From a virus: a DNA stretch of 64,000 nucleotides. Below the pieces are notes generated by a model. The model did no database searches. It saw nothing but the letters and a program-made list of their open reading frames with translations, and was not told where the DNA came from. Shown here piece by piece: positions 5,399 through 41,770 of the stretch. Position 1 is the first letter of the stretch. Every line of letters starts with the position of its first letter. The translations under genes were made by a program, and so were the position numbers. Where the stretch lies: positions 26,571-90,570 of the IMG/VR virus record IMGVR_UViG_3300025645_000047. The stretch is one strand, 5' to 3'.

Positions 5399-5496
5399 TA
5401 AATTAAAAAATATTAGGAGGTTTGATACGTCCACCTTATATTTACATAAACGATTGTATCAAAAACAATTTATATTAATTAAACACAATTTTTATT

Positions 5497-6465: not shown

Positions 6466-6490
6466 TAGTCTAAACTAAACTAAAATTACC

Positions 6491-6529
6491 AAAGGGACTG
6501 GAATTTAATTTTCCCAGTCCCTTTTTTTT
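6491..6529 (+). terminator. Rho-independent terminator
   Basis: AAAGGGACTGG...CCAGTCCCTTT stem followed by a long T run. Confidence 0.9.
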
Positions 6530-6553
6530 ATTCATTATAACAAAAAAAACATT

Positions 6554-12315: not shown

Positions 12316-12316
12316 T

Positions 12317-22212: not shown

Positions 22213-23550
22213 ATGGATATAATGTCAAAGTTTAACTTGCCTAAATATGTAAAAGGAAAATCCTTTTCTGAGGCAAGTGCTATTATTGCAAAAAAGTTTG
22301 AGGACAGGTCTGATCCAGAATCTGTTGCAACACTTAATGACCTACAAGGAAGACTTCAACAAGCTCAAGAGTTTGTAAAAGCTGAACAAGAAAAAGCATC
22401 TCAACCAGAAGGAGCACCAGCAGAAGGAGCAGCTCAACATCAAATGCCTGATGGCAGTATGATGCCAGGAGCAGAGCATGGTGGTCAAGGTGGTGCAGAA
22501 GAACTTGCTGCAATGGCTGCAATGCAAGGAGGCCCAGGTCAAATGCCTCAGCAACCTATGGGACAAGAAGCTATGCCACAAGCTATGCCACAAGATCCAA
22601 ACATGATGACATACGGAGGTATGAAGTACATGTACGGAGGTAAAAAATATATGTCTGGAGGAAAGATGTACAAGAGTGGTGGAAGCATGCTAGCTAATAT
22701 GTATGATGATGGAGGGCCAGTTCACAATGCTACTCCTCATCCACATTCTGAACAACAAAGGCCAATGATTGATGCACCTTATGCTATTCCTGATTCAGAT
22801 GGAATATCTACAATGGGTTTTAATACACCTGAAATGCCTACTATAGCAAATTCTCCTTCTAAATTAGACTCTTACGGAATATCAGATAGTCTTAATAATG
22901 TTATGGAAACACCTAACGAGCTGTTTCAAAAAGATCAAGAAACTATTGCTAAAGAATATGCACAACATTTAAAAGATAAAAAGAAATCAGATAGAGAAAA
23001 AAAGACTAAATTTAACCCGGCAGAAGCTTTAAGGTATGCTCCAACATTAATGAGTGCTTTTAAACTAGCAGATTTAAAAAAGCCTACGCAAGTAGGAATG
23101 GATAGATTAGGAAATAGATACAACGAACAATTAGTTGATGAAAGAGGATTACAGAACGCTGTTCAACAAGGTGCAATAAATCAAAGAGATGCAATACTTG
23201 GTTCCTCTGGTGGTTCTGGAGCTGCAGCTAGAGCTAACTTGTTAGCTAGTCAGTTGCAATCACAGAAAGGACTGTCAGCTGCAAACATGCAGGCAACAGA
23301 AATGAATAGAGCAGAGAATAGAGCTGGTCAAACGTTTAATAGAGATACAGATAAAGCTAATCTACAGCAATCTAATATGCAAACTGAATTTCAATTAGAA
23401 CAGGATGCAGCATACGATAAAAACAGATCTAAACTTCTTGCTCAAATAGGAGCAGATTTAGGAGGAATAGGTCAAGAAGAATTATTTAAAAGATACCCTG
23501 AGTTAATGGGACTTAGCTACAGCTCAAGAGGTAAACATATAAAACCATAA
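22213..23550 (+). CDS. Cargo/ejection protein, C-terminal part
   Basis: Starts with FNLPKYVKGKSFSEAS...RLQQAQE; ALRYAP and SSGGSGAAARANLLA; Gln/Ala-rich helical C-terminus as in crAss cargo protein 1. Confidence 0.7.
   Translation: MDIMSKFNLPKYVKGKSFSEASAIIAKKFEDRSDPESVATLNDLQGRLQQAQEFVKAEQEKASQPEGAPAEGAAQHQMPDGSMMPGAEHGGQGGAEELAAMAAMQGGPGQMPQQPMGQEAMPQAMPQDPNMMTYGGMKYMYGGKKYMSGGKMYKSGGSMLANMYDDGGPVHNATPHPHSEQQRPMIDAPYAIPDSDGISTMGFNTPEMPTIANSPSKLDSYGISDSLNNVMETPNELFQKDQETIAKEYAQHLKDKKKSDREKKTKFNPAEALRYAPTLMSAFKLADLKKPTQVGMDRLGNRYNEQLVDERGLQNAVQQGAINQRDAILGSSGGSGAAARANLLASQLQSQKGLSAANMQATEMNRAENRAGQTFNRDTDKANLQQSNMQTEFQLEQDAAYDKNRSKLLAQIGADLGGIGQEELFKRYPELMGLSYSSRGKHIKP
22603..22716 (+). repeat. 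Imperfect 21-nt (7-aa) tandem repeat encoding Y/M-x-x-GG motifs
   Basis: MMTYGG MKYMYGG KKYMSGG KMYKSGG ... MYDDGG. Confidence 0.75.
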
Positions 23551-25621: not shown

Positions 25622-28600
25622 ATGCTTGAAGAAAACTTAATTGGTATAGATGAATTGCTAGATAGCAGTCTTGAGATTGTTGAGGACCCACGTGACGATT
25701 TAATTAGTGATGAAGAGTATCAAGAGTTATCAAATTACGGAATACAAAAAAAGGGTGCTCAATGGAGAGAAAACATTGACGTAGGTGATACTGGATTTGG
25801 AGATTCTCAATGGGATGAAGGAGCTACTATAGAAGAAGTTCAAGGAACCGCAGGTACTGCAGGACTACAGGGCAGAAGATCTACTCTTCAGCCTTGGCAA
25901 GACCAGCTTGCTAATGCGGTAACCCAAGCAGTTGTTGGAGAGATAATTGGTGGTACTATAGAAGGAGTTGGTTATTTATTAGACTGGCAAGGTATGGCCA
26001 ACTTGGCTAATGGTTCAGAAAAAGAATACACTAACTGGTTTTCAAATATAGGAAAAGGAATAAGAGAAAAAACTCAAGATCTTACTCAGATACATGAAAG
26101 ATCTCCAGGAGAGATGGATCTATTTGATTCTGGATACTGGTTTAAAAACTCTGTATCTGTTGCATCTACTTTGTCTATGATGTTGCCTTCTATGGCTGCA
26201 GCTAAGGGGTTAGGTATGCTTGGTAGAGGAGCAAGTAAGCTTATTGGTAAAGGAATGGCTAGAGGAGCCAAAAAGATTGGTAGAGAACTTTCTGAAGAAG
26301 CTTTTGATGTAGCTACTAAAATGGGCGTTCAAGCTGAATGGATGACTAGTGGTATTAGTGAAGCTGTTGTTTCTAGACATATAGAAAACAGCATGGAAGC
26401 TTCAGGTACATTTGAAGAAATTTATGAAGAAAGATTAAAACAAGTTAATCCAAAAACAGGAGCATACTTTACAGAAGGTGAAGCAAGACAAAGTGCTGCA
26501 AATGCAGCTTCCGAAAATTACAAAAATGGTTGGGCAATGCTTGCACAAGATATGTTACAGTACTTATCTATTGGTAAAGTATTTAATCCCGTTACAAGAC
26601 AGATGGAAGTTGCTAGAAAATTTACAACAGCATCAAAAGCACCTGCATGGTTAAAGAAAGCTGGAGCTGTTACAGGAACATTTGCATCAGAAGCAGGGGA
26701 AGAAGGATACCAACATTTTATAGCATCTAAAGCTGCATTAAACAGCGAGTTAAATGCTGGATTAATATCTGAAGAAGAATACAAATCTCAACTTGGAGAA
26801 GTAATGAGTTCTGACGAAGCTATGACATCAATGTTATTTGGTGGATTAGGTGGTTCTGTATTTCAAATGGTTGGACCAAAAGCAAACCAGCTATTTAAGT
26901 CTAAAAGTAAAAAGGAATTTGAAGAAAATGCAGGTCAATTATTTTCTACTGCTTTAGAAAACAGAGCTAAGATTCATGCTGCATTGCAAGTTCAGAAAAA
27001 TAATGCAGAAGAATTTGGTACTGAAGAAGAAATACAGGCAGCACAAGATGACATTATATTAAACATGGTTCTTGACGGAATTGATACTGATAATGTAGAA
27101 ATGACAATGGAGGCTATGAAAAATGAGCCTGAAATGACTGCTGAAGAAATAGCAAAATTTAAAGAGGAGACTGACCTTGAATGGGATCCAGCTGTTGCAA
27201 AAGCAGGAGCAGAAAGAGCACTTGAAGTTGCTGCACGAGTTAAAGAAATTCATTACAGGAATAGAAACAAAGCTAAGAATAAAAATGTAGCTCCATCTAT
27301 TGTTCAAGACATGACTCGTATTGAATTCCAGAATGAAGAGTATGGAAAACAAATTACGAAGATTAAAAAAGATAACAAGAAAAGAATAGATGATATTCAG
27401 TTTGATTCTTTTCTTAAGCCAATGGATAATTTCCGTGAGAAAAAAGATCTTGAAGCAAAAATTGCTGCTACTAAAGAAGTTATAGGACGTACAGAAGAAA
27501 GGCTTGCAAAAAGTAAAGATGAAGATTCTATAAAAACCAAAAAGGATTTAATAAAGTCACACAACTCTAATCTTCTTAAGATGCAAAATAGAGTAAGTGA
27601 GATAGGAAAAGAAGATATAGACCCTAAAACTGGAAAGACAAATAGAGATGCTGATCAAATAGAAGCAAACAAAAAAGGAGAAGTTGTTTACAATGATGGT
27701 TTAATGGCAGAAATTGCTGGAGGGTATTTAAGAGAGCTTCAGTTAAATGATGCTATTACTGAAAATCAAAACAGTTTAAAAAGACTTAATGACAAAGCCT
27801 TTCAAAAACAAAAGGTTGTAAAAGATGGTATAAGAGGAATTAAAGAAGCAACCGATATATCAGCTTTAGAAAACTATCAAGCTGGTATTGAATCTGGTCA
27901 AGTACAAGGGTATGAAAATGCTGAAGACAAGAAAAAAATAGATGAAGCTATAAAAGAAAAAATAGCAGAGCTTAAAGAGAAAGAATTAAAAGACAACCAG
28001 GCAATTGAGGAAGAAAAAATAAAAGCTGAGCTTTTGGCTAAAGCTGCTGCAGAAAATGCAAAACTTAATTCAGTTGGAGAAACTGTAACTACACCTGTAG
28101 ATGAAGCAGTTGAAGATACATTCTTTTTTGAAGAAGCTTTAATTGAAGAAGAATTACAAGATAAAGCTGAAGAGCACACTGAAGTGTTAACAGGTAATGG
28201 AAAAACTGTATCTCCTTTAGATGACAATGAAAACACTAGTGGCCCATATAGAGAATGGATTCACAATGGGTTTGACAAGATAGGCACAGTAATTACCTAT
28301 GCTTCTCATACTAGAAGAGGGTTTCATAGAGCTTATCAAAACAGAAAGACTCCAGCAGGTAGAGCATACAATACTTATAATGATCTTTTAGAGAGAGCAA
28401 AAAAAGGAGAAAAAATTACAGTACCACAAAATGTATATGACAACTTACCAATTGCAGCTAATGTAGGAGAGGTTGGAGGAAGTATATATACGGTTATGCC
28501 TTCTTATCCACGTAAGACAAAACAAGATGGCCCAAAAAGATATGCAGAAAAATTAAGAAAGTATCAAGAAAACTACGCAGCAGAAAGAAAGCACATAATT

Positions 28601-31012
28601 GATGCAATGCTTGCCAATGAAGGTAAAGCAGAAACAACTATTAAGCACACTGGTGGAGGTGAGTTACAAATACAGCCTAGTGTAAAAGGAGTTAAGGCAG
28701 AGAATAACATAAAAGATCTTAAGCAGGTTAAGGCAGAACAGAAAAAAGGTAATCCTCCTAGAATATTATTTTCTGATATAGATGGAGCGTTAAATGAAAT
28801 AGATGAAAGTAAGAGTACTCTTGCTAATGAGTTTAGAAAAATAAAACTTGTTGCTGGAAACAATTCAGAAGGCCAGAAAGTCCCATACAAAGGTGGTTTA
28901 TTTCTTGTATTAAAGAAAGCTGATGGAACTCCTTTTCCTGTACGTCTAAACTTAAAATACAATACTAAAGATCAATCAGAGGTATTGGCTGACTTGCTTT
29001 TGGATGTTAGTGTTCCTGGAAAAATAGGAGAGAAAACCAAATACTCACTTACTGATCCACTATCATTCCTTGACCAAGACTTACAAGATAGGATTAAATT
29101 AGAAATGGGACCTGAAATAGAAATGCTTGGTGGTGTTTCAAGCGATCCAACTTTGACTGACATAATAAATGCTTTTGTATTTGTTAATGAAAGCACTCAG
29201 GGATCTAAGTCTCAATTGTTTATGAAGTCTGGTGAATTGCACTTTGGAGAAATGGGTAACAGTATTTCAGCAGAGAGTGCATTAGGAAGAAGAGAAGAGT
29301 TAGTTACGTTTTTAACAGAAGTTAAAAGAAGACAGTTTAGTATTAAGATGTGGAATGACACTGAAAACTATCCTGGATATAGAGATTTTATGATGGACAA
29401 TGGTATTATAAATACTAATGTTGTTGTTGGCCAAGATGAATTTCAATCAAGTCAGCCTGAAGAAGGTACAGGAAAAGTAGCCAGAAGAGTTCAGATATAC
29501 ATGGCACCTCTTGCACCAGTAGCGTCAGATAAGCCAGCAGAAGTTGTTCAAAATAAAGAATCAGTTACTAAAACTGTTGTTGATTCATCTAACAGCTTAC
29601 CTAGTGATCCTTCTACAGATGTTAAAGAAAAGACTGAGCCAGCACCATTTGAAGTAAATGCTGCTATTAAAAAGAAGTTTAAAGGTATTCTGTATCTTGA
29701 CGGTAAGTTTGTGCAACTTCAGGGAATGAAGGAAGTGACTGACAAAGAAACTCTTAAAGAGCTTAACAAGATTAAAGACGATTTATTTAAAGACTTTAAT
29801 GACAAAAAAGAAAAAGCAAAAAAAGTTGTAACTGAAGCTAAAGAAAAAGAGATAGCTTCTGAAATGACAGAAAAAGAAACGTCATTAAAAGATGCTAAAG
29901 ATCAACTAGATTTTGAAATAGAAAGATTAGATGACATAGATACTTCTGAAGAAGCAAACATAGTAAGCAAAGATGAGGTTGCAGAAAAGAAGAGACAAGC
30001 TAGAGAGAGATATGTTCAGAAAGTACAAGAGATAAAAAAGGAATATGCTCCTGCACCTGTAACGCCAGCTCCATCTGAAAAGCAAACAATTACAAAGAAA
30101 ATCTTTGATGTAATGGGTAATGAAGAAATGGGTTATGATGTCATGGAACTTACTGAGGATGGTTTAATCACTGATGGCCAAGGATCCCTTAGTAAGGATG
30201 AGGCAGAAGAGTATGCAGCTAAGCTTCAGTATGATGCAAACAAGGCACCAACACCACAAACTAGTGAGGTTGAAACAAATGAGGCTAAGATAAAAGAGTT
30301 AAGGGATCAAGAACAAAATGAGTTACTTGACGCTATTCCTAACGCTGAAAAGTATCTTACAAATGGAAAAGTAGACAAGACTAAAATAAAAAATAAAAAG
30401 TACATAGCTAAGTTTGAAAAGATATACAACAAGTATGATAAGCTTATATCTCCTTTAATGGTAGAAGAGACATCTCCAGCTAATGAAACCTCTACAACTA
30501 CTATAGAAAGGTTAAAAGAAATAGGGTTTGTATATCCTTTTTCAGAAAATGACAAAAGTGGTGCGTATTATGAGAACCATCCTGAATATAAAATAACTAT
30601 AGACGGTACTAAAGTTACAACTTTTCCATGGTCTGAAAGCACTAGTGAAGCAAACATCTCTGACAATAGCCAAAAAGTAACATCTGGAAAAGCTGTTGAT
30701 GATAGCAATCCTACTGTATACAAATTTGACACAGCTGCAGAAGCTAGATTAAAAGCAGAAGAGTTGTCTAGAATAACCCCAAAAGCTGATGATACCAAAA
30801 TTAGTAAGAAAGACAGTAAAGACTTACCTTTAACAAATAATAGAAAAGTAAGAAAGCAATCTAATTCTAGTTCATTAATAGTAGATACCGGTGCTTCTAG
30901 AAGAAGACCTAGAAATACTGAAGAAGTAACTGATGATGATGTTAAACCTAAAGATGAAAAGAAAAATATAGAATGTACTCCAGGAGGAGGGCAAATGAAA
31001 ATAGATTTTTAA
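25622..31012 (+). CDS. Giant virion/ejection protein (first of three giant genes)
   Basis: 1796 aa; Gly/Ala amphipathic N-terminal segments with SEAGEEGYQ, long coiled coils, low-complexity C-terminal linkers. Confidence 0.7.
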   Translation: MLEENLIGIDELLDSSLEIVEDPRDDLISDEEYQELSNYGIQKKGAQWRENIDVGDTGFGDSQWDEGATIEEVQGTAGTAGLQGRRSTLQPWQDQLANAVTQAVVGEIIGGTIEGVGYLLDWQGMANLANGSEKEYTNWFSNIGKGIREKTQDLTQIHERSPGEMDLFDSGYWFKNSVSVASTLSMMLPSMAAAKGLGMLGRGASKLIGKGMARGAKKIGRELSEEAFDVATKMGVQAEWMTSGISEAVVSRHIENSMEASGTFEEIYEERLKQVNPKTGAYFTEGEARQSAANAASENYKNGWAMLAQDMLQYLSIGKVFNPVTRQMEVARKFTTASKAPAWLKKAGAVTGTFASEAGEEGYQHFIASKAALNSELNAGLISEEEYKSQLGEVMSSDEAMTSMLFGGLGGSVFQMVGPKANQLFKSKSKKEFEENAGQLFSTALENRAKIHAALQVQKNNAEEFGTEEEIQAAQDDIILNMVLDGIDTDNVEMTMEAMKNEPEMTAEEIAKFKEETDLEWDPAVAKAGAERALEVAARVKEIHYRNRNKAKNKNVAPSIVQDMTRIEFQNEEYGKQITKIKKDNKKRIDDIQFDSFLKPMDNFREKKDLEAKIAATKEVIGRTEERLAKSKDEDSIKTKKDLIKSHNSNLLKMQNRVSEIGKEDIDPKTGKTNRDADQIEANKKGEVVYNDGLMAEIAGGYLRELQLNDAITENQNSLKRLNDKAFQKQKVVKDGIRGIKEATDISALENYQAGIESGQVQGYENAEDKKKIDEAIKEKIAELKEKELKDNQAIEEEKIKAELLAKAAAENAKLNSVGETVTTPVDEAVEDTFFFEEALIEEELQDKAEEHTEVLTGNGKTVSPLDDNENTSGPYREWIHNGFDKIGTVITYASHTRRGFHRAYQNRKTPAGRAYNTYNDLLERAKKGEKITVPQNVYDNLPIAANVGEVGGSIYTVMPSYPRKTKQDGPKRYAEKLRKYQENYAAERKHIIDAMLANEGKAETTIKHTGGGELQIQPSVKGVKAENNIKDLKQVKAEQKKGNPPRILFSDIDGALNEIDESKSTLANEFRKIKLVAGNNSEGQKVPYKGGLFLVLKKADGTPFPVRLNLKYNTKDQSEVLADLLLDVSVPGKIGEKTKYSLTDPLSFLDQDLQDRIKLEMGPEIEMLGGVSSDPTLTDIINAFVFVNESTQGSKSQLFMKSGELHFGEMGNSISAESALGRREELVTFLTEVKRRQFSIKMWNDTENYPGYRDFMMDNGIINTNVVVGQDEFQSSQPEEGTGKVARRVQIYMAPLAPVASDKPAEVVQNKESVTKTVVDSSNSLPSDPSTDVKEKTEPAPFEVNAAIKKKFKGILYLDGKFVQLQGMKEVTDKETLKELNKIKDDLFKDFNDKKEKAKKVVTEAKEKEIASEMTEKETSLKDAKDQLDFEIERLDDIDTSEEANIVSKDEVAEKKRQARERYVQKVQEIKKEYAPAPVTPAPSEKQTITKKIFDVMGNEEMGYDVMELTEDGLITDGQGSLSKDEAEEYAAKLQYDANKAPTPQTSEVETNEAKIKELRDQEQNELLDAIPNAEKYLTNGKVDKTKIKNKKYIAKFEKIYNKYDKLISPLMVEETSPANETSTTTIERLKEIGFVYPFSENDKSGAYYENHPEYKITIDGTKVTTFPWSESTSEANISDNSQKVTSGKAVDDSNPTVYKFDTAAEARLKAEELSRITPKADDTKISKKDSKDLPLTNNRKVRKQSNSSSLIVDTGASRRRPRNTEEVTDDDVKPKDEKKNIECTPGGGQMKIDF

Positions 31013-31025
31013 AACTTAATATATA

Positions 31026-34000
31026 ATGAAATACTGTAGCGTTAAAAACCCGGCAAATGGGAAAAAATCCGAATTGCACGAACAATTAGCAGATGTATTT
31101 AAAGACCTTCAATTAGCTGAAACTGCATACGCAGAAGTAACAGGTCCAACTTTTAAAGAAAGGTTTGGAGACTGGGAAAAAGCTTTTAAAGAGGGCTACC
31201 CTGATGGTCTTAAAGACATAGGGTTAGTAGACCCAAAAAATGGAGAGCCAGTCTTGAAGAAAAATTTAGCTAATGGAATGTGGTATTACACAGAAGCTGA
31301 TGGCATAACAAAAGATTACTTAAACATGGTATCTCTTGCTGCTTTTACTGCACAACAAATAGAAGAGGTTACTGATCATCTTTTATTTAGATTTATATTA
31401 GACGGAGGGCCTAGCAAATCTTTAAATGAATACAATCCAAACGAGCTTGAGAAAGGTCGTGTAATGGAGTCTATTGAGCAAAGTATAGCAGCATATAAAG
31501 AATCTATAAAAGACAAACCTAACAGGGCTGAGTTGCTAGAAAAGATAGAGCTAGTTGAAAGTAATAAAGAAGAGTATAGAAAAAATCTAATTTCATACAT
31601 AGAGTCTTTAGGTATGAAAGTTAGAGAAAGAGTTACTGATGCCCAGGGTAATCCAGTAACTGAAGTATCAGCTGAAGATAAAGGAGGAGGATTGAACATG
31701 CAAGATTCTTTTGAAACCAACTCTAAAGATACAGCAAGCGTAAACACAAAAATATTTCTATCTCAAATTGAAAATAGAGTTTACGGAGAAGTAATAGATC
31801 CAGAAACAGGAAAGACCTTACTTAAAGAAGACGGAACACCAGACTTACAGTCTATTCCATTATCTAATGGATATCTAGAAACAGAATCATTTGCTAAATT
31901 TGATGACGTATGGGATACACTAAAAAGTGTTCTTACAGACGAAGTTGGTTATGGCTATGGGGAAAATGTTGTTGATATATTTGATGTAATGTACAACAAG
32001 CTTGACAACATAAAAGAGTCTAAGCTTTGGATGCACGACTTGCTAGATAAGCTTGACAGGATGAGAAGTGATCCTAATTCTAGGAACAAAATTACTCAGT
32101 TTGTACAGGCAATGACAGGGACACAAGTAAACTTCTATGTAACACAACACGATAACGGTAACTACACTGTTATGAATGCTACTTCTACAAATAGCAAGCA
32201 AAGTAAAGTTACAAATAAATGGTATAATTCTTTTGACGCAAGGTATTTAACCGAGGGTGTATTAAAAGAAAATGAAAGAGCACAACTAGAAAAGGAATAT
32301 GATGAGCTTGTTTATCTTCAAGAACAATACAATGAAGATATAGCAAAGATAGGTATAAAGGCTAACACTCCTCTTACTGAAATACAGGAGGAGCAAAGAA
32401 GAATAGCAGTTAATTATGCAGCATTAGATCTTTCTACTGTCTATAACAAATTAGGAGCTGACGAGGTTAGACCTAAAGATTTCCAAACAATGTTTAACTT
32501 AAATGGAGGAGATAATAAGGCAATAGACATTCTTGATGACCAATACAAAAGAGCATTATACTTGTTTAAAACTATATTAGATAAAGATTTTAAGTTTAAA
32601 GATGCAGAAGGTAATCAAGAAAATATATTTAACAAAGAAGTGTCTACTAAGCTTCTAGCAAATGCTATTGGTTGGGATACTGGAGACATGTCTGAAATGT
32701 CTGTATTATTAACTAATGGTAAAACAGGTTACGCAGTAACAAATCCTACTTATGTTTCTAATAAAATTAATGAATGGAAAAAAGATCCAACTGAATTAGA
32801 AAATTTATTGCTAGATAAAGGAAAGCAAAACTCTAGATGGATTAATTACTTGCTTGCAAAGGATGAGCCAAACAGGAATAAAAGAAAAGTAAAGATGCAA
32901 AAAAGACTTGATGATTTTGGCCATGGGCTTGACTCTGCATTTAAGTCTAAAGGAAAAAATGACGGTGTTTCTAATGTAGAGATTACTTTAAATGACCAGA
33001 TTAATGCTAATATGGTTCAGATGCTTAATGACAAATTAGGAGCAAATGAAAAGTCATTTTTTCCAACAATAATTGCTGCTGACAAATCAAGAAGAATATT
33101 ATTCTCAGGTATTAAATCATTTGATTCAGGTATAAGAAAAAGCCCACAAGGTGATATTTACATATCTCCTAGCTCTATTAATGTTGCTTTTGGGTATTTC
33201 CTAGATGAATACAACAGAATGAAAAGGGTTAATCGTGAAAACAACGACCCAAATATAAAGAAAGCCATTCACTATCACGCTAGAATAGTTGATGGTAAGG
33301 TAGAAGATATTGGAAATGGACAAAGATCCCAAATATTTCCTCAGTTTGACAAAGACAGCAAGGATCCAAAATATGCAGATTTAAGAAGAATGCTTTATGG
33401 TGATTCGTTTAAGGATGATAAGTTTGACAAACTTAGTTCATCTCAAGAAGAAATTGTAAAGAAACACATTAAAGAAAGTATTCAAGAAAGAGTACAAGAA
33501 ACTGCAGATAGACTTAAAGGAATTAGCGGAACTAGTAAAGCTTTAATAAAGCACTATGGTATTAATGAGGGAGGCCTTGACCCTGATTACACAACATTAG
33601 CTGGTGATTATTTTATGAATGGGCTTATATCTTCTGTTGAGTATACTAAAATGTTTTCAGGTGATCCAGCTTATTACAAAAACAATGCGGATTTAATTAA
33701 GCGTATTCCTGCTACTTACACAGATGGACTACAGCTTAGAATAGATAGTAAAGATGCACTTATATTTAACCAAGCAACAATAAATGGTGTTGAAGTTGCT
33801 TCAAGATATGTTGACAAGATATTAGCTTCTGTTACAGATAAATCTATTGCACTAGCTTATGGTAAGACTGTAGATGAGAAGGGTAATCCAATAGGAAACA
33901 ATGTTAATACTACTGATGCACAAGCATGGATTACTCCACGTAGATGGAGATTCATTAAGCAAAAGCTTGGCCAGTGGGGACCTCAGCATGATAAGGTTTA

Positions 34001-37000
34001 TAAGAAAATGAGAGAAGGTAAGCAGCTAGAGCCTAATGAGGCAAAATTAGCAGCACAGCCTCTTAAAGGTGTTTACTTTGAAATTAATGAAGGAAGACCA
34101 GTGTATTTAAAGTATTCTCAAGCTGTATTAATACCTTCTTTAGTTAAAGGTACTCCAATGCAAGCTTTGTATGATAAAATGACAAAAGATCCTGAGACTG
34201 GAAAAGAGTACGCAGACAATGAGGCTCACTTAGAGATCCATGAAGTTGTAACTTTAGATGGTATAAAAGTAGGTGCTATTGAACCAACAACTATCAACAA
34301 GCCAGGAACAACTGAATTAGCAGATGAGTTTGAATTAAATCCTCAAGTGTTAAACAACAGGGGATGGAAGCTTCAACAGGATTTGCCTATTAAAAACATG
34401 AAAGAAACAAATGTTGGTTCTCAAATTCAAAAGAATATTTTTGAAGGAATGGACATGACTGGTGAGTATGTTGTAAATGGGAAAACAGTAGATGGAACTA
34501 CATTAGCTCAAAATATGCATGATGCTGTATCTAGATTATCTGATTTAGGTAAGGAAAAATTAATAGAAGACTACGGCATTGATGCAAATGGAAAAATTAC
34601 AAACAAAGATAAAATATACGCTGCACTCATAAGAGAGTTTAAAGATAGGGGAGGTAATGACAATATTGTTACTGCACTTGAAAAAGGAACTCCATTTGAT
34701 GCAATGCCTCAAATTAGAGGTAAAGTTGAAAGTATCTTTATGTCTATAATGAACAGGGCACTTACCAAGATTACCACACAAGGTGGTAGCTTTATTCAGG
34801 TATCTCCATTTGGATTTGAAAAGATAGATCCAAAAGATTCTGGAATTATAGTAGTGTCAGAAGACTACAATGGTGAAGGTCTACTTCCCCCAAGAATTGT
34901 AGATGGCAAAGTATTACCTGGCCAAGCAATGATACCTCACTCACAAGCTATAAAGCTTTTGAAAAAGCACGGTATTACATTAGAAGGTAAGACTATGAAG
35001 TCTGCAATGTCATTGTTAGATCCTAGTGTATTAGAGTTAGTTACATATAGAATACCTAACCAAGGGATGTCTTCTAATGACTACTTACAGATAGTTGGTG
35101 TATTGCCACAAGGTGTTGGAGATAGTATATTAGTGTACGATGGATTGCCTGCAAAGACAGGTAGTGATTTTGATATTGACAAATTGTTTGTAATGCAAAA
35201 CAATATTGTATACGATACAGAAACAGGAAAAGTAACAAAGCTAACTAGAGAAAACTCACATCTTGCTGTTAAGACTTTAGGTAAGCGTGCATACACTGAC
35301 AAGAAAACTGGAAAGAAAGTTCCAGCTACTCCAGACATTATGTACAGTAGTGTTGAAATAGAAAAAATGCTAGTTCAAAATGACCTTGTAGCAAACTATA
35401 AGGCTGTATTGAACTCTCCAAAAAACTATGACGCAATGATGAGGTCTATTGATGGAGCTCAACTAAAAGATGATATTGTAGGTACTAAAAAGAATGGGTT
35501 TAAAGATGGATTATTTCCTGCACCTGTAATGAAAAATATGGAGTTGTTTTCTCCACTTGTACAGCTTGAAACTAAAAACGCTTATTTATCAGGTAAAATG
35601 GGCGTAGGGCAGACTGCCAATCATTTAGTTGACCATGTAATGAATCAATCATTAAATATTGAGTTCAATAGATGGATAGGAGTAGGAAACGTAAGATACG
35701 AGAAGATTACCACAGGAAAAAGAAAAGGCCAAATGAAGCCAATAACTTTCTTTGATCGTGAAACAACAGATAAGCATTCAATTGCTGATAATCTATCTGC
35801 ATTCCTTAATGCTTATGTTGATATTGCAAAAGATCCTTATATTTCTCGTGCTAACCACAACTCTATTACAGCAAACACATCTTTTATGTTGCTTAGAGCA
35901 GGTGCTAGCATGAAGTTTGTAAACAGATTTATTGGACAGCCAATACTAAGAGAACTTGTACAGTTGCAAATGGAGCAGCAAAGTATTACTGCTTCAGAAT
36001 TAACTAATATGGATGAACAAGGAAACAAGGATCCATTTAAAGTAGCTCCAATGGATGCTATACTTTCTAAGTATTTTGGTAATCGTAAGATTCCATCAGT
36101 AGTTAGTGGTAAAACTGTAGCTGACCTTAGTGACTCTAAATTAGAAGCAAACATAAAAAACAGAGATGCAGGTTCTGAAATGGAGTTTAATGTATTAAAA
36201 GCTTGGTCAATGCTTCAGGAGCAAGGTAAAATATTTGGTGAAGCAGTAATTGCTGCCAAATCTGACACTGCTGGTGCAGGTGGTTCTAATGTTGACAGAA
36301 TGGTTAATGAAAACAAAATAAAAAAAATTATTAGTACAGGTGAAGTAGTTAACTTTTCTGAAAAGTACAAGGACACTATGCTTGGAACTTATAAAGAAAA
36401 TACTCTAGACTGGGTTAAAAGTGTAGTAAAAAATTCTGATTTATTTTTATCAGGAACTCAGATGGCTGAAAATGTATTTAATAACATATCATCTTTAACT
36501 GCAAATGGAGAATACCTTGTAGATGCAAAGCTTGGTAAGTCTATTGATGCTGGGTTTTACTCATACATAATGTCTGGAACTAAATTATTTAAGGATAGTT
36601 TTAAAAAGTATAATTCAATAACTACAAATGTACCTTTATCAGTAGAAAAGAAACAAGAAGGTATAATAGCAGGAACTGAAGAAAGAAATCATCTTATAGA
36701 AAATTTAGAAATTGAAATACGTAAGGGAAAAAAATACTTAGGAATAAACAATAAAGATAAACCAAAGCATTACCAAGAGCAAATATATAGAGGATGGATG
36801 CAGCTGTACAATAAATTTTACAAGAATGAAGACGGCAGTATAAATAAAGATAAAATACATCCTGATAGAAAGTTAGCTTTAGATCTTGCTAGGTATTCAT
36901 TTATTGGATCTGGATTTCAAAATAATCTAACTCAATTCTTTACACATATACCTCATCAAATACTTAAAGACAATAACTTAAATAAAGAGATTAAAGACAT

Positions 37001-37616
37001 CATAAGAAATAACAATAATGAAAATAATCTAGAAAGTGACTCTGAGTTTGTTGATCAACTATTAAGACATAGTATAAAAGATCCAAAAGTAATTAAAAGT
37101 CTTAAGATTAAGAACATGGATGGTTCAGCAACTGCTTTTACATATAAACCAGCTAAAATTAAAAGTCAAGAGTTTGGTAATGTTCAAAACAATGAAAGAA
37201 TATTTCCTAAATTTGTAGCAGGAAGAGTAGGTTATGATTCTTTTTTGTACGAAATGAAAGGTACTGTAGAAAAAACAGATGCTGATGGAGGTACTATGAG
37301 AGTTCCAGTTTATATTCGTACATTTACACTAGGAACTAAAGAGGGAAAATATAATACTGTTGAGTATAGTAGAGGGACTAAAATTAGTGAGTCTAATAAT
37401 AATGCAAACAACGTTCTGCCATCAATTCAATTGAAAGCCCAGGAATACTTAGATAACATAATGATTAACAACAAGACTTTCAAAGACATGAATGGAAATC
37501 CTTTAGACAGTATTTCTATAGAAAGTATTAATCAGATAAGAAAAAGTAATGTAGAGGCTGTTGTTGAGAATTTAGATCAAATAATAGAGGATAATAATAT
37601 TAAATGTGTGCTATAA
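31026..37616 (+). CDS. Virion-packaged single-chain DNA-dependent RNA polymerase (phi14:2 gp66-like)
   Basis: 2196 aa; catalytic GSDFDIDKLF (DFDID at 35166-35180), YRIPNQG, TDAQAWIT, FSGDPAYYK, AYVDIAKDPYI. Confidence 0.92.
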   Translation: MKYCSVKNPANGKKSELHEQLADVFKDLQLAETAYAEVTGPTFKERFGDWEKAFKEGYPDGLKDIGLVDPKNGEPVLKKNLANGMWYYTEADGITKDYLNMVSLAAFTAQQIEEVTDHLLFRFILDGGPSKSLNEYNPNELEKGRVMESIEQSIAAYKESIKDKPNRAELLEKIELVESNKEEYRKNLISYIESLGMKVRERVTDAQGNPVTEVSAEDKGGGLNMQDSFETNSKDTASVNTKIFLSQIENRVYGEVIDPETGKTLLKEDGTPDLQSIPLSNGYLETESFAKFDDVWDTLKSVLTDEVGYGYGENVVDIFDVMYNKLDNIKESKLWMHDLLDKLDRMRSDPNSRNKITQFVQAMTGTQVNFYVTQHDNGNYTVMNATSTNSKQSKVTNKWYNSFDARYLTEGVLKENERAQLEKEYDELVYLQEQYNEDIAKIGIKANTPLTEIQEEQRRIAVNYAALDLSTVYNKLGADEVRPKDFQTMFNLNGGDNKAIDILDDQYKRALYLFKTILDKDFKFKDAEGNQENIFNKEVSTKLLANAIGWDTGDMSEMSVLLTNGKTGYAVTNPTYVSNKINEWKKDPTELENLLLDKGKQNSRWINYLLAKDEPNRNKRKVKMQKRLDDFGHGLDSAFKSKGKNDGVSNVEITLNDQINANMVQMLNDKLGANEKSFFPTIIAADKSRRILFSGIKSFDSGIRKSPQGDIYISPSSINVAFGYFLDEYNRMKRVNRENNDPNIKKAIHYHARIVDGKVEDIGNGQRSQIFPQFDKDSKDPKYADLRRMLYGDSFKDDKFDKLSSSQEEIVKKHIKESIQERVQETADRLKGISGTSKALIKHYGINEGGLDPDYTTLAGDYFMNGLISSVEYTKMFSGDPAYYKNNADLIKRIPATYTDGLQLRIDSKDALIFNQATINGVEVASRYVDKILASVTDKSIALAYGKTVDEKGNPIGNNVNTTDAQAWITPRRWRFIKQKLGQWGPQHDKVYKKMREGKQLEPNEAKLAAQPLKGVYFEINEGRPVYLKYSQAVLIPSLVKGTPMQALYDKMTKDPETGKEYADNEAHLEIHEVVTLDGIKVGAIEPTTINKPGTTELADEFELNPQVLNNRGWKLQQDLPIKNMKETNVGSQIQKNIFEGMDMTGEYVVNGKTVDGTTLAQNMHDAVSRLSDLGKEKLIEDYGIDANGKITNKDKIYAALIREFKDRGGNDNIVTALEKGTPFDAMPQIRGKVESIFMSIMNRALTKITTQGGSFIQVSPFGFEKIDPKDSGIIVVSEDYNGEGLLPPRIVDGKVLPGQAMIPHSQAIKLLKKHGITLEGKTMKSAMSLLDPSVLELVTYRIPNQGMSSNDYLQIVGVLPQGVGDSILVYDGLPAKTGSDFDIDKLFVMQNNIVYDTETGKVTKLTRENSHLAVKTLGKRAYTDKKTGKKVPATPDIMYSSVEIEKMLVQNDLVANYKAVLNSPKNYDAMMRSIDGAQLKDDIVGTKKNGFKDGLFPAPVMKNMELFSPLVQLETKNAYLSGKMGVGQTANHLVDHVMNQSLNIEFNRWIGVGNVRYEKITTGKRKGQMKPITFFDRETTDKHSIADNLSAFLNAYVDIAKDPYISRANHNSITANTSFMLLRAGASMKFVNRFIGQPILRELVQLQMEQQSITASELTNMDEQGNKDPFKVAPMDAILSKYFGNRKIPSVVSGKTVADLSDSKLEANIKNRDAGSEMEFNVLKAWSMLQEQGKIFGEAVIAAKSDTAGAGGSNVDRMVNENKIKKIISTGEVVNFSEKYKDTMLGTYKENTLDWVKSVVKNSDLFLSGTQMAENVFNNISSLTANGEYLVDAKLGKSIDAGFYSYIMSGTKLFKDSFKKYNSITTNVPLSVEKKQEGIIAGTEERNHLIENLEIEIRKGKKYLGINNKDKPKHYQEQIYRGWMQLYNKFYKNEDGSINKDKIHPDRKLALDLARYSFIGSGFQNNLTQFFTHIPHQILKDNNLNKEIKDIIRNNNNENNLESDSEFVDQLLRHSIKDPKVIKSLKIKNMDGSATAFTYKPAKIKSQEFGNVQNNERIFPKFVAGRVGYDSFLYEMKGTVEKTDADGGTMRVPVYIRTFTLGTKEGKYNTVEYSRGTKISESNNNANNVLPSIQLKAQEYLDNIMINNKTFKDMNGNPLDSISIESINQIRKSNVEAVVENLDQIIEDNNIKCVL

Positions 37617-40600
37617 TGAGTTGTAAAAGCGGAAGATACGAGTTTAAAGGAGTTAAGATGAGTGAAAAAGACCTTGTTAGGTTTCTTTCACAAAAACAAG
37701 ATATAGTTAATGCTTATAAAGCTCAAGAGGAAAGAATGAGCGATGACTATAAAGCAGAAGATAGAGCTACATTTGAAAAAAAGACTGCTGCTTTACAGGC
37801 AACTATGAATGTTGAGGTTGTATATGATGACCAAGTTGAAACATCAAGATTGTTGGGGAAGAATGACCCAAGAACTAAAGCTGCAGGAAAGCCCGTAATA
37901 GTTATTAATCCTAATCAATTATACAAAACTACTGCAATTCATGAGTTTGGCCATGTATTTATTGATTCACTTCCAGGAGGCATAAACAACCCAAGAATAC
38001 AGAAAGCTCTTAATGAGCTTAGAGGCACACCATTATGGGCAGAAATATCAGAACTGTATCCAGATTTATCTCAAGATATGCTTGAAAAAGAAATACTTGT
38101 AACTGCTATTGGTAGAGAAGGTTCTGAGATATGGGCTGACAATGAAAAAGCTTCCATGTGGGAGTCTTTTTTAGCTTGGTTTAACGATTACATCAAAAGA
38201 ACTTTTGGCCTTGAGAGAAGTGAGGTAACAGCCTTAACTAAAGATTTACTAAGCAATCGGGTGAAAGATATCTCTGTTTCTAAATTAGAAGAAATTGATC
38301 AACAAATGAGATTGCCTATTACTCTAAAGGATAAAAATAAAAAAGTTACTCAAGCTGAAATAGATCTTGCTATAGAGACAAAACAGATAGATAGGAGTTA
38401 TCAAAAATTATTAGGAACAGTTACAAAAGTTCTTAAGAATGAAAAAAGTCTTATTACAACTCCTCAACAGCGTAAAAAAGAAAACAAAAAACAAGAAGAA
38501 CTTTCTAAATTACCTGTTCCTCAAAAAACAAGGCTAGAGTCAATCAAACAACTTGAAAAAGCATTAAAAGATTTTGAGGATGTAGACAAAGCCAAAGGAT
38601 TTACAGAGTATTTAAACTGGTCTTTAGGTCAATTGTATTTTATGAAAAATACACTAGAGAGTAGAACAGAAATGGAGAAAATAGATGAAGAAAGATTAAA
38701 AAAATCTTTTAACTGGTTGTCTTCTTTTAATGTTGTAGATGAAACACAAATTGCTCTAAAAGAATTATCTGATCAAGGAATAATGACTCCAGATCAAATT
38801 GCCACAATGTCACAGGTAATTAATGCTATTCAGGGTTTAAAAAGAGACATCAATGCTAGTCTTATAAAAAATGCACGTAGTGCTTATGTTGGAATGTTAA
38901 TGAAAAATGACGTTAGAACTGATGAGACCTATAAAGACTTAATTAAAGAGGAGTACAAAGAGCTTAAGGCTGTTAATGGTACTGATTTAACAGAAGGAGA
39001 ATACTTGATCCAAGAATTGCAAGCTAGGCAAGTAGAGATAATGGATACAAAAAGAGAAATTGCAGTAGAGAGATCTTTAACTTCTACTACAGCTCTAGGG
39101 ATGTTGTCTTATACCTTACTAACTGAAAAAGAAATGAAGTCAGAAGATGTAGCACTTATATCTAGTCTTCTTGACGCTGCTAGCAACAACATTGAAATTT
39201 ACTCTGTAACAAAAGCTACTGAGGAAGATGCTTTCTTAAAAAAGTTTAATGAAATTCCTGGAACAAACACCAGGAACATGAAAAAGAAATACAAAGGAAT
39301 GTTTACTGTATCTTCTAGTGGAGTTTCGTATTACACTGGAGAATATAACCCAGACTTTCTTGAAAGACACAATGAGCTAGCTAGAGAGCAAGGTGATTCT
39401 GAAATACATAATGAAATGTATAAAGACACAAAGGTTACTTTAGGTTTAAACGATCAAGGACAAAAAGAGTATTACTATACATCAAACATAGAAGATCCTA
39501 AAACAGGAAAAACAGAATCTACTAAACTTGAAATATTTGATGCTGAAATGACTATTCCTGGTATTGAAAATTTAGATCCAGATGAAAGACCAGTGCATGT
39601 TTCATACCAGTACAAAAATGAACAAAAGCACACAGTTACTTTAGAAGAAGCAATTGCTAGAAGTGAGTATTCTAGGTGGTTAAGAATAAATACTGCTAAG
39701 AAAACATGGACTAACAAAGAAGGAATGCAGGTTACAGGAAAAAGACCTATTGCTGAATGGGAAAGTCAAGAGTATAAAGACTTAGAAGCAGATAAAACTC
39801 CTGCGGGAATACAGAAATTTGAAGAACTTGATAGGCTTAAAAGAGACCAAGTAGCTACTGATAAGATGTATGGAGCTAAAAATTCTCTTATTGATAATTG
39901 GAGAGCTGTAAAATTCATAAGACTTCCAGGGGTAATGAAGACAGCTGCATCAAGAGTTGTAGAGGGTCAGTCTATAAAAACAATGGGTAAGCAAGCTATA
40001 AGTGAATTGACAGAAACTCAAGCAGATGAATTTGATGTTGAATCAGGACCTAAGCAATACACTGATTACTCAGAAGGAGAAACATTAAGAGCCCCTACTC
40101 CTTATAGAAAAGCTTTACAGGAAAATGACCAATCTTATGACTTGCACACAATAGGATTACTTCACGCAATCATGGGTAAGAACCATCAAGAGAAGAGTCA
40201 AGTTGAAGCTGCTTTAACTGTTATTACAGAAGTAATGAAAGAAAAGCAATATCCTGTATTAGACAGTCAAGGTAATCAAAAATTAGACAAACAAAGTAAT
40301 TTACCATTAACTGAAAGTGGATCAAAATCTAATGAGTTAGCAAAAGTAAAATCTGTTGCTGAAAATAGGCTTTATGGCCTTACTACAAAAGATTCAGGTT
40401 CATTTAAGGTTCCTGGAACCAAAAAGGTTGTTGAGGTAAATCAAGTAGGAAAAGCTGCATTAAAGTATTTTGGTTCTGTATCACTTGTATTTAATTACGC
40501 AAACAGTATTGTGAATACTGGTACTGGAACAATTTCAAATCTTATTGAAGCTATTGGAGGTGGACTTTATAGTTTAAAAGATTACAGAGCTGCACAGAAA

Positions 40601-41770
40601 ATGTACAACTTTGATTTAAAAAACATAATGGCTGACATGGGGGCAAATGTTCAGACTTCTAAAACAAATTTATTTATGAACTTCTTTAATGCAATGGGGC
40701 CAAATGCATTAAATAATGAATTTGAAAAAGGAAGTAAGATGGAGACTCTTGCTAACATGAATAGTTTACGACCACTTGCAAACATGGGAGAACACATGAT
40801 GCAGGGAAAGGTTATGTATGCTATATTAAATTCAATAAAAGTACAGGATAAAAACGGTACTTTTTTAGACATTAATGGAAAGCCCACTAAAGATAAGAAG
40901 AGAGCTGCTAGTTTAAACGACATGATTACTTTTAAGAAGAATAAAAATGGAGGTATGGAAATGGTCCTTCATCCTTCAGTTATGAATACAACATTCACAA
41001 CTACAGGAAAGCAAGCAGATATAATTCTAGAGACTCGTAATTTAATAAGAAGTAAAATTGATGAATTACACGGTCAGTATACTACTGACATTCAAGCTCA
41101 TGCACAGAGATACATGCTTGGTAAGATGGGATTCTTTTTAAGAAAATGGATGGTACCAGGTTACATTCGTAGATATAGAGGTATAAGTAATTTTTATAAG
41201 CCTGCAGATGCTGAGTTATCTGAAGCTGATTCATTTTACAGTCAAGATCAAAAAAGAAACATGGAAGGGTATTACGTATCTACTTCAAGATTTATAGCCA
41301 AAATAATTAATGACACTAGAGAGGATAAGTTTAATATTGTAAAAAGCTGGAAAGAATTAACTACTGATCAAAAAGCTGGTGTTAGAAAAACTATGGCTGA
41401 TGTAGCATTTATGATAGCAGTTACAATAGCATACAATCTCTTAGCAGGAGATGGAGACCTAGAAGATGATGAGGTATTGATGGCGTATTTATTAAGAAGA
41501 CAGCAATCTGAATTGTTATTCTTTGCTTTACCTAGTGAAGCGTTTAAAATTGCTCAGACACCTACAGCTGCGGTTGGTAACTTAGGTAACATGCTTAAAG
41601 TTAGTAATCATATATTTCCTTGGAATTATGGACAAAGATATGAAACTGGAAAGTATAAAGGAGAGTTAAAACTAAAGCATAGACTTAAAAAGCTTAGACC
41701 AAATATTAAAGATACTGATGATTTTAGAAAAGCACTTGACTTTTTGAATTCAAACATAGGTAAACAGTAA
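37616..41770 (+). CDS. Giant virion protein with N-terminal zincin-like HExxH domain; ORF is open from 37604
   Basis: TAIHEFGH followed by EILVTAIG; long helical remainder. A TAATG stop/start overlap with the RNAP gene favours the start at 37616. Confidence 0.75.
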   Translation: MSCKSGRYEFKGVKMSEKDLVRFLSQKQDIVNAYKAQEERMSDDYKAEDRATFEKKTAALQATMNVEVVYDDQVETSRLLGKNDPRTKAAGKPVIVINPNQLYKTTAIHEFGHVFIDSLPGGINNPRIQKALNELRGTPLWAEISELYPDLSQDMLEKEILVTAIGREGSEIWADNEKASMWESFLAWFNDYIKRTFGLERSEVTALTKDLLSNRVKDISVSKLEEIDQQMRLPITLKDKNKKVTQAEIDLAIETKQIDRSYQKLLGTVTKVLKNEKSLITTPQQRKKENKKQEELSKLPVPQKTRLESIKQLEKALKDFEDVDKAKGFTEYLNWSLGQLYFMKNTLESRTEMEKIDEERLKKSFNWLSSFNVVDETQIALKELSDQGIMTPDQIATMSQVINAIQGLKRDINASLIKNARSAYVGMLMKNDVRTDETYKDLIKEEYKELKAVNGTDLTEGEYLIQELQARQVEIMDTKREIAVERSLTSTTALGMLSYTLLTEKEMKSEDVALISSLLDAASNNIEIYSVTKATEEDAFLKKFNEIPGTNTRNMKKKYKGMFTVSSSGVSYYTGEYNPDFLERHNELAREQGDSEIHNEMYKDTKVTLGLNDQGQKEYYYTSNIEDPKTGKTESTKLEIFDAEMTIPGIENLDPDERPVHVSYQYKNEQKHTVTLEEAIARSEYSRWLRINTAKKTWTNKEGMQVTGKRPIAEWESQEYKDLEADKTPAGIQKFEELDRLKRDQVATDKMYGAKNSLIDNWRAVKFIRLPGVMKTAASRVVEGQSIKTMGKQAISELTETQADEFDVESGPKQYTDYSEGETLRAPTPYRKALQENDQSYDLHTIGLLHAIMGKNHQEKSQVEAALTVITEVMKEKQYPVLDSQGNQKLDKQSNLPLTESGSKSNELAKVKSVAENRLYGLTTKDSGSFKVPGTKKVVEVNQVGKAALKYFGSVSLVFNYANSIVNTGTGTISNLIEAIGGGLYSLKDYRAAQKMYNFDLKNIMADMGANVQTSKTNLFMNFFNAMGPNALNNEFEKGSKMETLANMNSLRPLANMGEHMMQGKVMYAILNSIKVQDKNGTFLDINGKPTKDKKRAASLNDMITFKKNKNGGMEMVLHPSVMNTTFTTTGKQADIILETRNLIRSKIDELHGQYTTDIQAHAQRYMLGKMGFFLRKWMVPGYIRRYRGISNFYKPADAELSEADSFYSQDQKRNMEGYYVSTSRFIAKIINDTREDKFNIVKSWKELTTDQKAGVRKTMADVAFMIAVTIAYNLLAGDGDLEDDEVLMAYLLRRQQSELLFFALPSEAFKIAQTPTAAVGNLGNMLKVSNHIFPWNYGQRYETGKYKGELKLKHRLKKLRPNIKDTDDFRKALDFLNSNIGKQ

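Follow-up and report, generated by a model that had tools for sequence, protein, structure and literature searches.

Facing cysteines at the ends of three giant cargo proteins suggest a covalently linked chain around the virion RNA polymerase of crassviruses

The cargo block and its four cysteines

The stretch of DNA considered here, in the following called the window, comprises 64,000 nucleotides (nt) and represents bases 26571-90570 of the 90,570-base IMG/VR virus record IMGVR_UViG_3300025645_000047 (CheckV completeness 92%). The source is a marine crAss-like phage, and the plus strand of the window carries its tail and cargo block, with the muzzle protein, small cargo proteins, and three giant proteins that are termed A, R and C here (Table 1). 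R matches the virion RNA polymerase (RNAP) of Cellulophaga phage phi14:2 (PDB 6VR4_A, E 4.5e-199, with query residues 7-2121 covered in two stretches), and homologues of A and C flank R in IMG/VR loci, as found by labelling with iterated hidden Markov models (HMMs). The counterparts of A are gp078 in phi14:2 and gp47 in crAss001, and by homology to these two phages it is likely that A, R and C are packaged in the virion. The subject of this analysis are the cysteines (Cys) of the three giants: A, R and C together contain only four Cys in 5,376 residues, and all four are found at those ends that face the neighbour protein. An earlier reading of the letters alone (the sequence-only reading) had proposed on this basis that the three proteins are linked by disulfides into a linear chain that delivers the polymerase.

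The Cys were counted in the translations of every open reading frame (ORF) of the window with at least 150 amino acids (aa), and the other ORFs contain 0-2.7% Cys. If four Cys were placed at random, the probability that each of the four facing ends receives one within 12 residues would be ~6e-10, a value that is post-hoc arithmetic for the 5,376 residues. Retranslation gave the same Cys coordinates and counts as the sequence-only reading, namely one in A, two in R, one in C and none in the three small cargo proteins, and only its list of six ejected proteins was incomplete, as it omits a 957-aa ORF with 15 Cys that lies inside the block. In the case of C, two further starts can be considered. 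The ATG at 37604 gives the longest ORF, overlaps the Cys2194 codon of R and would yield Cys2 and Cys7, and the ATG at 37658, which stands behind AAGGAG, would drop the Cys. Because the relatives of C begin with M-S/N-C and are homologous from residue 1 on, with C3 as an invariant column in the respective alignment (A2), the start at 37616 appears to be the best one, and 37604 and 37658 are less likely.

Table 1. Features of the tail and cargo block (positions refer to the window)
Feature	Positions	Strand	Length (aa)	Cys	Remarks
Muzzle protein	12287..16423	+		8	Pfam crAss_MUZ, E 1e-194; identifies the block as tail and cargo of a crassvirus
Cargo protein	16478..19033	+	851	0	crAss_CARG1 domain, E 1.7e-19
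DUF285/leucine-rich repeat (LRR) ORF	19312..22185	+	957	15	Pfam DUF285, E 4.7e-72
Cargo-block protein	22213..23550	+	445	0	crAss_CARG1 match weak and below cut-off
Cargo-block protein	23562..25595	+	677	0	
Protein A	25622..31012	+	1796	1	First member of the proposed chain; sole Cys1785
Codon of A Cys1785	30974..30976	+			11 residues before the C-terminal end; tail ECTPGGGQMKIDF
Virion RNAP R	31026..37616	+	2196	2	Homologue of phi14:2 gp66; only Cys4 and Cys2194
Codon of R Cys4	31035..31037	+			Start MKYC...
R catalytic motif DFDID	35166..35180	+			Residues 1381-1385
Codon of R Cys2194	37605..37607	+			Third residue from last (...IKCVL)
Protein C	37616..41770	+	1384	1	Last member of the proposed chain; sole Cys3; start overlaps R stop (TAATG)
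Codon of C Cys3	37622..37624	+			Start MSCK...
HEFGH motif of C	37940..37954	+			Residues 109-113; zincin-type metal-binding motif

Conservation of the terminal cysteines

Three IMG/VR relatives with ~59% identity have the identical four Cys and no others. In an alignment of 21 R sequences with 31-63% identity, C4 and C2194 are invariant columns, as are D1381, F1382, D1383, I1384 and D1385 of the catalytic motif. A larger set of 120 R homologues from the protein collection (29-100% identity) has a Cys within the first 15 residues in 114 cases and within the last 16 residues in 101 cases, and 84 of the 120 possess exactly these two terminal Cys and nothing else, with internal Cys amounting to 16 per 281,488 residues. 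The six homologues that lack the N-terminal Cys are all fragments or have a doubtful start, and the 19 that lack the C-terminal Cys are 13 R+C fusions, five short fragments, and P0062. The proteins without C-terminal Cys that also have no C domain are P0002, P0018, P0043, P0044, P0062 and P0100, and five of these six are below full length.

A profile scan of IMG/VR resulted in 80 loci with R identities of 23-60%, in which the A, R and C domains were labelled by HMMs iterated from the window proteins. When the window is included, A and R are separate proteins in 39 cases; both facing Cys are present in 36 of them, and the upstream protein is unrecognised or off the locus in the other three. In two loci with an upstream protein that was not labelled by the HMM (L043 and L035), an upstream C-terminal Cys can still be found. 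R and C are separate in 78 cases, with the pair in 74, with C off the locus in three, and with a missing pair in a single one (L049). Considering only junctions at which both ends are visible, the pair is thus present at 36/36 A/R junctions and at 74/75 R/C junctions. The outer ends of the chain are free of Cys, which holds for the first 15 residues of the complete first members (0/67) and for the last 35 residues of the complete last members (0/69). The positions are also strikingly terminal: the upstream Cys is 0-3 residues away from the C-terminal end in 90 of 101 Cys-bearing unique ends, and the downstream Cys is at position 3-5 in 96 of 103. The internal Cys content of the giants in these loci is 0.025% (109 in 430,596 residues, not dereplicated), as compared to 1.43% in background ORFs from the other strand of the loci, of which 11% contain a Cys among their first 15 residues and 18% among their last 20. 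The sequence-only reading had predicted for orthologues in the Crassvirales that Cys are restricted to the termini that face each other and that the outer ends of the chain are bare, and this is what is found in the R homologues and in the 80 loci, and also in the cultured phages that are described below.

The residue directly following the Cys is Lys in 32% of the C-terminal tips and in 25% of the N-terminal tips (9.6% in the background). A Lys next to a Cys would favour a reactive thiolate.

In one locus (L036, 16669-20172), an extra protein of 1167 aa that belongs to no known family is encoded between A+R and C, and its only Cys are at position 4 and one residue before the C-terminal end. 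With a Cys at both tips, this protein suggests that the chain can gain one more link.

As a separate observation, many R homologues (P0037, P0038, P0059, P0069, P0070, P0073 and many of P0160-P0240) possess additional domains, of helicase type (AAA_30, UvrD_C_2, PIF1) or other, within the C-terminal half, with the terminal Cys being kept.

Loss of the cysteine pairs in fused proteins

In many crassviruses, proteins that are separate in the window are fused to each other. Such A+R, R+C and A+R+C polyproteins contain the same domains in the same order, but a peptide bond takes the place of the Cys pair and the Cys-bearing tips are absent. In R+C fusions, the junction segment, delimited by the points 100 residues ahead of where the R match ends and 100 residues beyond where the C match starts, is free of Cys in 19/19 cases (13 database proteins, L009, and 5 polyproteins). 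The joint of these fusions is informative: the homology to R ends ~7 residues before the free end of R, and the homology to C starts near residue 23, which means that the sequence missing from the fusions is just that of the Cys-bearing tips. A search for longer proteins that covered 3844-5000 aa gave at least five full A+R+C polyproteins, none of which has a terminal Cys, and four of the five have no Cys at all. The same search gave 114 A+R proteins, 110 of which have no N-terminal Cys and keep a Cys within 35 residues from the C-terminal end. Three of the remaining four have neither Cys (one is a fragment and two end at the R match), and one is rich in Cys and has both. A 430-aa segment at the A+R junction is free of Cys in 144/156 A+R fusions, and the other 12 belong to lineages that are richer in internal Cys, as compared to a pair in 38/38 separate A/R cases of the table used for the tree test. 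The loss of the pair upon gene fusion, which had been predicted by the sequence-only reading, is thereby borne out. The Drobysheva preprint, as far as its accessible text goes, mentions fusions of this kind, with the supposition that they undergo cleavage.

Dereplication at 70% core identity reduced 201 rows to 74 clusters, and in this count, in which database proteins were called 'separate' by their C-terminal Cys, the R/C junction is separate with Cys in 70 clusters, fused without Cys in 5, and separate without Cys in 1. The A/R junction is separate with the pair in 28 clusters, fused without it in 17, and fused in one further cluster that has a Cys at some point of the wide junction segment. 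For the tree test, 'separate' was scored only from loci in which both neighbours were seen, and from the two cultured phages. In a FastTree phylogeny of 321 rows and 506 columns from the R core (residues 860-1380 of R in the window; L071 was dropped for too few core columns), the fusion state of R/C changed at least 7 times, and in six independent supported contrasts the junction Cys were opposite in 6/6 (159 of 200 pairings) or in 5/6 (41 of 200), with a median sign-test p of 0.03.

Independence from gene order and nucleotide context

The two cultured phages show the same pattern. In phi14:2, the GenBank numbering gp078-gp077-gp076 corresponds to A-R-C, and the RNAP is the 'gp66' of Drobysheva et al. 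(PDB 6VR4), to which R of the window is 37.5% identical over the part searched. The sole Cys of A (1797 aa) is the last residue in this phage, R (2180 aa) has Cys3 and a penultimate Cys, and C (1421 aa) has Cys3 only. According to tandem mass spectrometry (MS/MS) notes in the record, all three are virion proteins. In crAss001, gp47 (A, 2341 aa) has its sole Cys two residues before the C-terminal end, gp50 (R) has Cys at position 5, at position 1334 and eight residues before the C-terminal end, and gp49 (C) has its sole Cys at position 5; the crAss001 paper lists these three proteins among those detected in virions by mass spectrometry. The gp47 gene of crAss001 lies on the strand opposite to gp50-gp49 (L083, 10120-28724), and the pattern still holds. 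The chain had been thought to follow the gene order, and the terminal pattern that this idea was based on is confirmed, but with gp47 on the other strand the order of the chain is not always that of the genes.

The intergenic distances at the junctions range from -29 to 6169 nt, and in two loci (L010 and L011) Cys-rich genes are present between R and C, yet C retains its Cys3. In 12 gut-type loci (L052, L053, L055, L057-L061, L064, L067, L068 and L076), long cargo ORFs emerge only if TAG is taken to code for a residue, with 20-72 TAG per giant ORF, and read-through of TGA or TAA is of no help. In these loci, which are fragmented under translation table 11, the pair is retained when TAG is read as glutamine, with the Cys of A+R at the last residue or two or three residues before it, and with the Cys of C at position 3, 5 or 6.

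These data also bear on the idea that the pattern is a matter of chance, an artefact of start codons or annotation, or a by-product of nucleotide signals at the gene junctions. It is true that in the window the codon of Cys2194 overlaps the ATG at 37604, and that an AAGGAG resembling a Shine-Dalgarno sequence precedes the ATG at 37658. However, the pattern is kept down to 23-30% identity and with varying spacing of the genes, it holds with the A gene of crAss001 on the other strand and in the gut loci with TAG as glutamine, and in the cyanopodophage A4, which is discussed below, Cys5 of gp26 is visible in the published cryo-electron microscopy (cryo-EM) map (PMC12002296). The strand of the A gene in crAss001 and the intervening genes in L010 and L011 thus exclude a nucleotide or coupling artefact, and together with the conservation in the R homologues and the spacing at the junctions this refutes the idea, to which we attribute a practically negligible probability.

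Disulfides as probable links

As the number of C-terminal Cys equals the number of N-terminal Cys and the number of breaks in the chain, and as a peptide bond can substitute for the pair, the sequences strongly support a pairwise, junction-specific interaction between neighbours by means of the two facing Cys. The loss of Cys in fusions would be expected also if each Cys acted on its own at a free end, be it by modification, by a thioester, or by attachment to some other part of the virion, and not by a bond with the neighbour. But then it is difficult to see why the outer ends are bare in architectures with separate A, R and C, in those with AR and C or with A and RC, and in those with AR, an extra protein and C alike, and why the numbers of Cys match so exactly, which renders such a solitary function improbable. 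To our knowledge, there is no such thiol chemistry at an M-x-C start without a signal peptide.

Another way in which the Cys might serve is as metal ligands, either in a 'cysteine switch' that caps the zinc of the HEFGH motif in C, or in a zinc bridge between the termini. This motif is ~100 residues away from Cys3 and fits the zincin-like protease domain that is ascribed to orthologues of the phi14:2 'gp65' in the accessible text of the Drobysheva preprint, where it is supposed that such proteases might activate the polymerase, and the four Cys in the window are the number needed for a tetrathiolate zinc site. Against this, R+C fusions keep the C domain without any junction Cys (0/19), phages with A+R and C hold only two terminal Cys, the A/R junction has the same signature though A and R have no HExxH, and in A4 the pair with the same signature is described as a disulfide (PMC12002296). 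As the fusions and the two-protein architectures keep fewer than four Cys, a Zn(Cys)4 site or a cysteine switch was rejected as the principal explanation, and a metal-binding function in general is very improbable.

A disulfide at such a junction has a precedent. In the pre-ejectosome of cyanopodophage A4 (Anabaena phage A-4L), Cys1715 of gp27 and Cys5 of gp26 have been seen by cryo-EM to be joined in a disulfide, and in the pentameric ring this bond is said to stabilise the insertion of the C-terminal gp27 helix, which occupies a cleft of gp26 (PNAS 2025, PMC12002296). In the A4 genome, these are the sole Cys of gp27 (1717 aa) and gp26 (1114 aa), and gp29 has none. Five more phages of the A4 group (~25% identity) have a sole Cys one or two residues before the C-terminal end together with one at position 5 (once at position 8), so that the pair is kept in 6/6. 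Shared with the window are giant ejection proteins that follow each other in gene order and are otherwise free of Cys, with a sole Cys at the C-terminal tip upstream and a sole Cys near position 5 downstream. The A4 proteins show no homology to the HMMs of A, R, C and the small cargo proteins at E values up to 10, and therefore the chain of the window may work like A4 but outside that protein family, the same signature having arisen in an unrelated module, in which it is a disulfide. There is one link in A4 and the pair includes no virion RNAP, whereas the chain of the window would have two links, one on either side of the polymerase, and in the accessible text the A4 bond figures as a detail of the structure, with no general rule derived from it and without relation to gene fusions. 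The view of the sequence-only reading that such links had not been described can therefore be upheld for the crassviruses, as full-text searches of main texts found no published description of their terminal Cys pattern and as the main texts of the crAss001 paper and the phi14:2 preprint do not use the term 'cysteine' a single time, but it has to be given up in its general form, since the head-to-tail disulfide of A4 is in print.

In the same group of phages, the gp28-type protein that bears a peptidase (L084, which is A-4L, and L085-L089) has a Cys pair ~20 residues before its C-terminal end in 5/6 (e.g. residues 1036 and 1039 of 1058), and TR020 has none.

In crassvirus virions, structural disulfides have been described in the gp57 dimer, in the tail barrel and in the fibre hubs of crAss001, as can be taken from the accessible part of the paper, and therefore such bonds do occur in these virions. 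Modelling of a C-terminal and an N-terminal partner had been suggested together with the disulfide idea, and a complex prediction of R 1950-2196 with C 1-300 (own alignments) gave a score of 0.45 with 0.00 for the best control, which hints at an interface, the result being a score with no contacts given. In the calibration, the mark was reached by 58/80 solved complexes and by 2/110 mismatched pairs. At least 34% of contacts are common to the runs, and the predicted local distance difference test (pLDDT) of the partner is at least 57. The A4 precedent, the structural disulfides of crAss001 and the complex prediction all raise the odds of a disulfide, and judged from the sequences, the terminal pairs quite probably form inter-protein disulfides in virions. 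As to the original idea of covalent links, the junction-specific pairing stands by its conservation, its loss on fusion and the bare outer ends, and the disulfide itself is what we infer. That A, R and C are tied by these bonds into one covalent thread is the best explanation of the data and is probable.

There are several points that weigh against this explanation. The bond is deduced in the case of crassviruses, the cryo-EM disulfide being that of A4 only, and the cargo proteins gp47, gp49 and gp50 are outside the modelled part of the crAss001 structure, at least in the accessible part of that paper. The complex prediction is weak by its own calibration, as scores between the mark and 0.60 comprise 7/80 solved complexes and both of the mismatches. 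In the 90.6-kb record, there is no match to Erv1/ALR, thioredoxin, glutaredoxin or DsbA, with the Erv1 search having been silent in every control genome as well. The particles assemble in a reducing cytoplasm, and since no thiol oxidase was found, an oxidation would have to be spontaneous and would take place once the particle is finished or has been released; the habitat of gut crassviruses is anoxic. The Cys of A in the window is an outlier with its 11 residues to the C-terminal end, as are those of L041 (17) and L012 (31). R is encoded in three ORFs in L043, where the C-terminal part of R has a Cys at position 3 and another one as last residue, and the upstream partner with a C-terminal Cys is missing. 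P0062 (2455 aa) has only the Cys at position 3, and P0236 is an A+R-type protein with 20 Cys that include one at position 3. With 10-20 internal Cys in the A+R proteins P0205, P0216, P0234 and P0236, three of which keep the C-terminal Cys, the internal depletion is not universal. Finally, for A/R the tree showed at least 5 changes, of which only 2 gave supported contrasts (p 1), too few to be informative.

A possible role in ordered delivery

If the three proteins are linked by disulfides, the facing Cys pairs would oxidise in the finished or released particle, and A, R and C would thereby become a single covalent, unbranched thread, which would have the same topology as the fusions A+R, R+C and A+R+C and as the single-chain N4 polymerase. 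As the Cys are located 0-3 residues from the C-terminal end and at position 3-5 from the N-terminal end, a joint would add hardly any thickness to that of a single chain, and as its stubs measure 0-5 residues, such a linked joint could pass the tail in the direction from the N- to the C-terminus. For gp45, an exit from the N- to the C-terminus with partial unfolding is expected by the authors of the crAss001 paper, as stated in its accessible part. The reducing cytoplasm of the host would then open the links and free the polymerase. In the sequence-only reading, the links were proposed to arise after lysis or in the periplasm, so that the proteins would thread in order. An ordered delivery with reductive release is thus a conceivable role of the links, which must be regarded with more reserve than the links as such. 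More specifically, and on a tentative basis, the terminal Cys pairs might be a redox-cleavable stand-in for a peptide bond that came up independently in Crassvirales and in the A4 group and is interchangeable with gene fusion, and the reduction by host thiols might not only release the RNAP but perhaps also switch it on. In AB toxins, an interchain disulfide is reduced in the cytosol of the target cell, which frees the catalytic chain. The crassvirus chain would share with these toxins the redox-cleavable link between a translocating part and an enzyme, which is an analogy only, as there is no homology.

The main rival to such a role, and one that is compatible with it, is a structural function: the disulfides could be real and nevertheless serve purely as a clasp of the packed cargo or pre-ejectosome, with no threading order and no reductive release. 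Stabilisation is indeed the function that is described for the A4 bond (PMC12002296, as far as accessible) and for the disulfides in the tail barrel and fibre hubs of crAss001 (crAss001 paper, accessible part), and the predicted interface of R tail and C head (0.45 as compared to 0.00) weakly agrees with it. But a clasp could sit anywhere on an interface, and the Cys are instead found at the extreme tips (90/101 and 96/103), and the replacement of the pair by a peptide bond in the fusions fits a chain better than a packing contact. A purely structural clasp is therefore rather unlikely.

Giant ejected virion RNAPs with a near-total loss of Cys are known also from Schitoviridae. In the ejection proteins of these phages (N4 gp50, DEV gp71-gp73), Cys are suppressed to 0.00075% in gp71 homologues, as compared to 0.865% in the proteome, and this has been ascribed to the passage through the periplasm (PMC11445570, accessible text); in a paper from 2026, the enzyme of N4 is likened to 'beads on a string'. 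In contrast to the window, the enzyme of Schitoviridae is one chain of ~3,400-3,500 aa with a different polymerase fold, and no terminal Cys are reported in the accessible text, whereas the window has three polypeptides with conserved terminal Cys and a gp66-type polymerase.

Apparent breaks without a cysteine pair

In some loci, the reading frame of R or A is interrupted at positions without facing Cys. Two of them (L024, 11655-12596; L042, 12749-13694) have R cut inside the catalytic motif, between GSD and FDxDKMY, by ~940 nt that contain an ORF for a LAGLIDADG_2 homing endonuclease (E 6.7e-25), and there is no Cys at the cut. A search with Rfam at the gathering threshold gave no intron (0 matches in 5 loci), but it is likely that the insert is an intron in the crassvirus polymerase gene and that the protein is continuous, in which case there is no protein break and facing Cys are not expected. 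In L047 (11940-12050), two R ORFs overlap at a run of Lys codons with the sequence A AAA AAG, and the -1 frame is open into the next R ORF, which points either to a programmed slip or to a sequencing (homopolymer) error. A single in-frame stop in L049 (9751), which interrupts an otherwise continuous A+R frame of ~4,000 codons, could be due to read-through, recoding, an error, or a pseudogene. In L043 (7361-19355) and L047 (15807-17528), related proteins with a Cys-x6-Cys motif (1161 aa and 573 aa, starting with MNKHIEAEG and MSKNIEVEG, respectively) are inserted in the cargo chain, and as the polymerase ORFs of L043 surround this insert, the rule of facing Cys is followed only incompletely there.

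As a rule for annotation, a facing Cys pair can be taken as the sign of a genuine boundary between proteins, and an apparent split without such a pair points to an intron, a frameshift or a read-through, as exemplified by L024, L042, L047 and L049.

Significance

Crassviruses are the most abundant phages of the human gut, and the passage of ~5,000-7,000 protein residues, including the early RNAP, through their narrow tail is treated as an open question in two recent papers, according to one of which it 'warrants further investigation' how the three RNAP-associated proteins relate to the single chain of N4. A conserved Cys pair at every gene break offers a concrete hypothesis that can be tested cheaply, as phi14:2 and crAss001 are cultured, and it would explain why split and fused gene architectures can be freely interchanged. 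What is likely new here is the proposed chain with two links and with the virion polymerase in its middle, the signature of which is conserved in Crassvirales of sea water as well as of the gut and is interchangeable with fusion.

Other features of the cargo block

The window has a G+C content of ~35%, with a strand switch near 42 kb. Protein C matches no Pfam family above the cut-off, PHROGs lacks families for the three giants and for the small cargo proteins, and a nucleotide search of the block against phage records gave no match. The 957-aa DUF285/LRR protein that is encoded between the 851-aa and 445-aa proteins probably acts as a surface or fibre protein and not as cargo.

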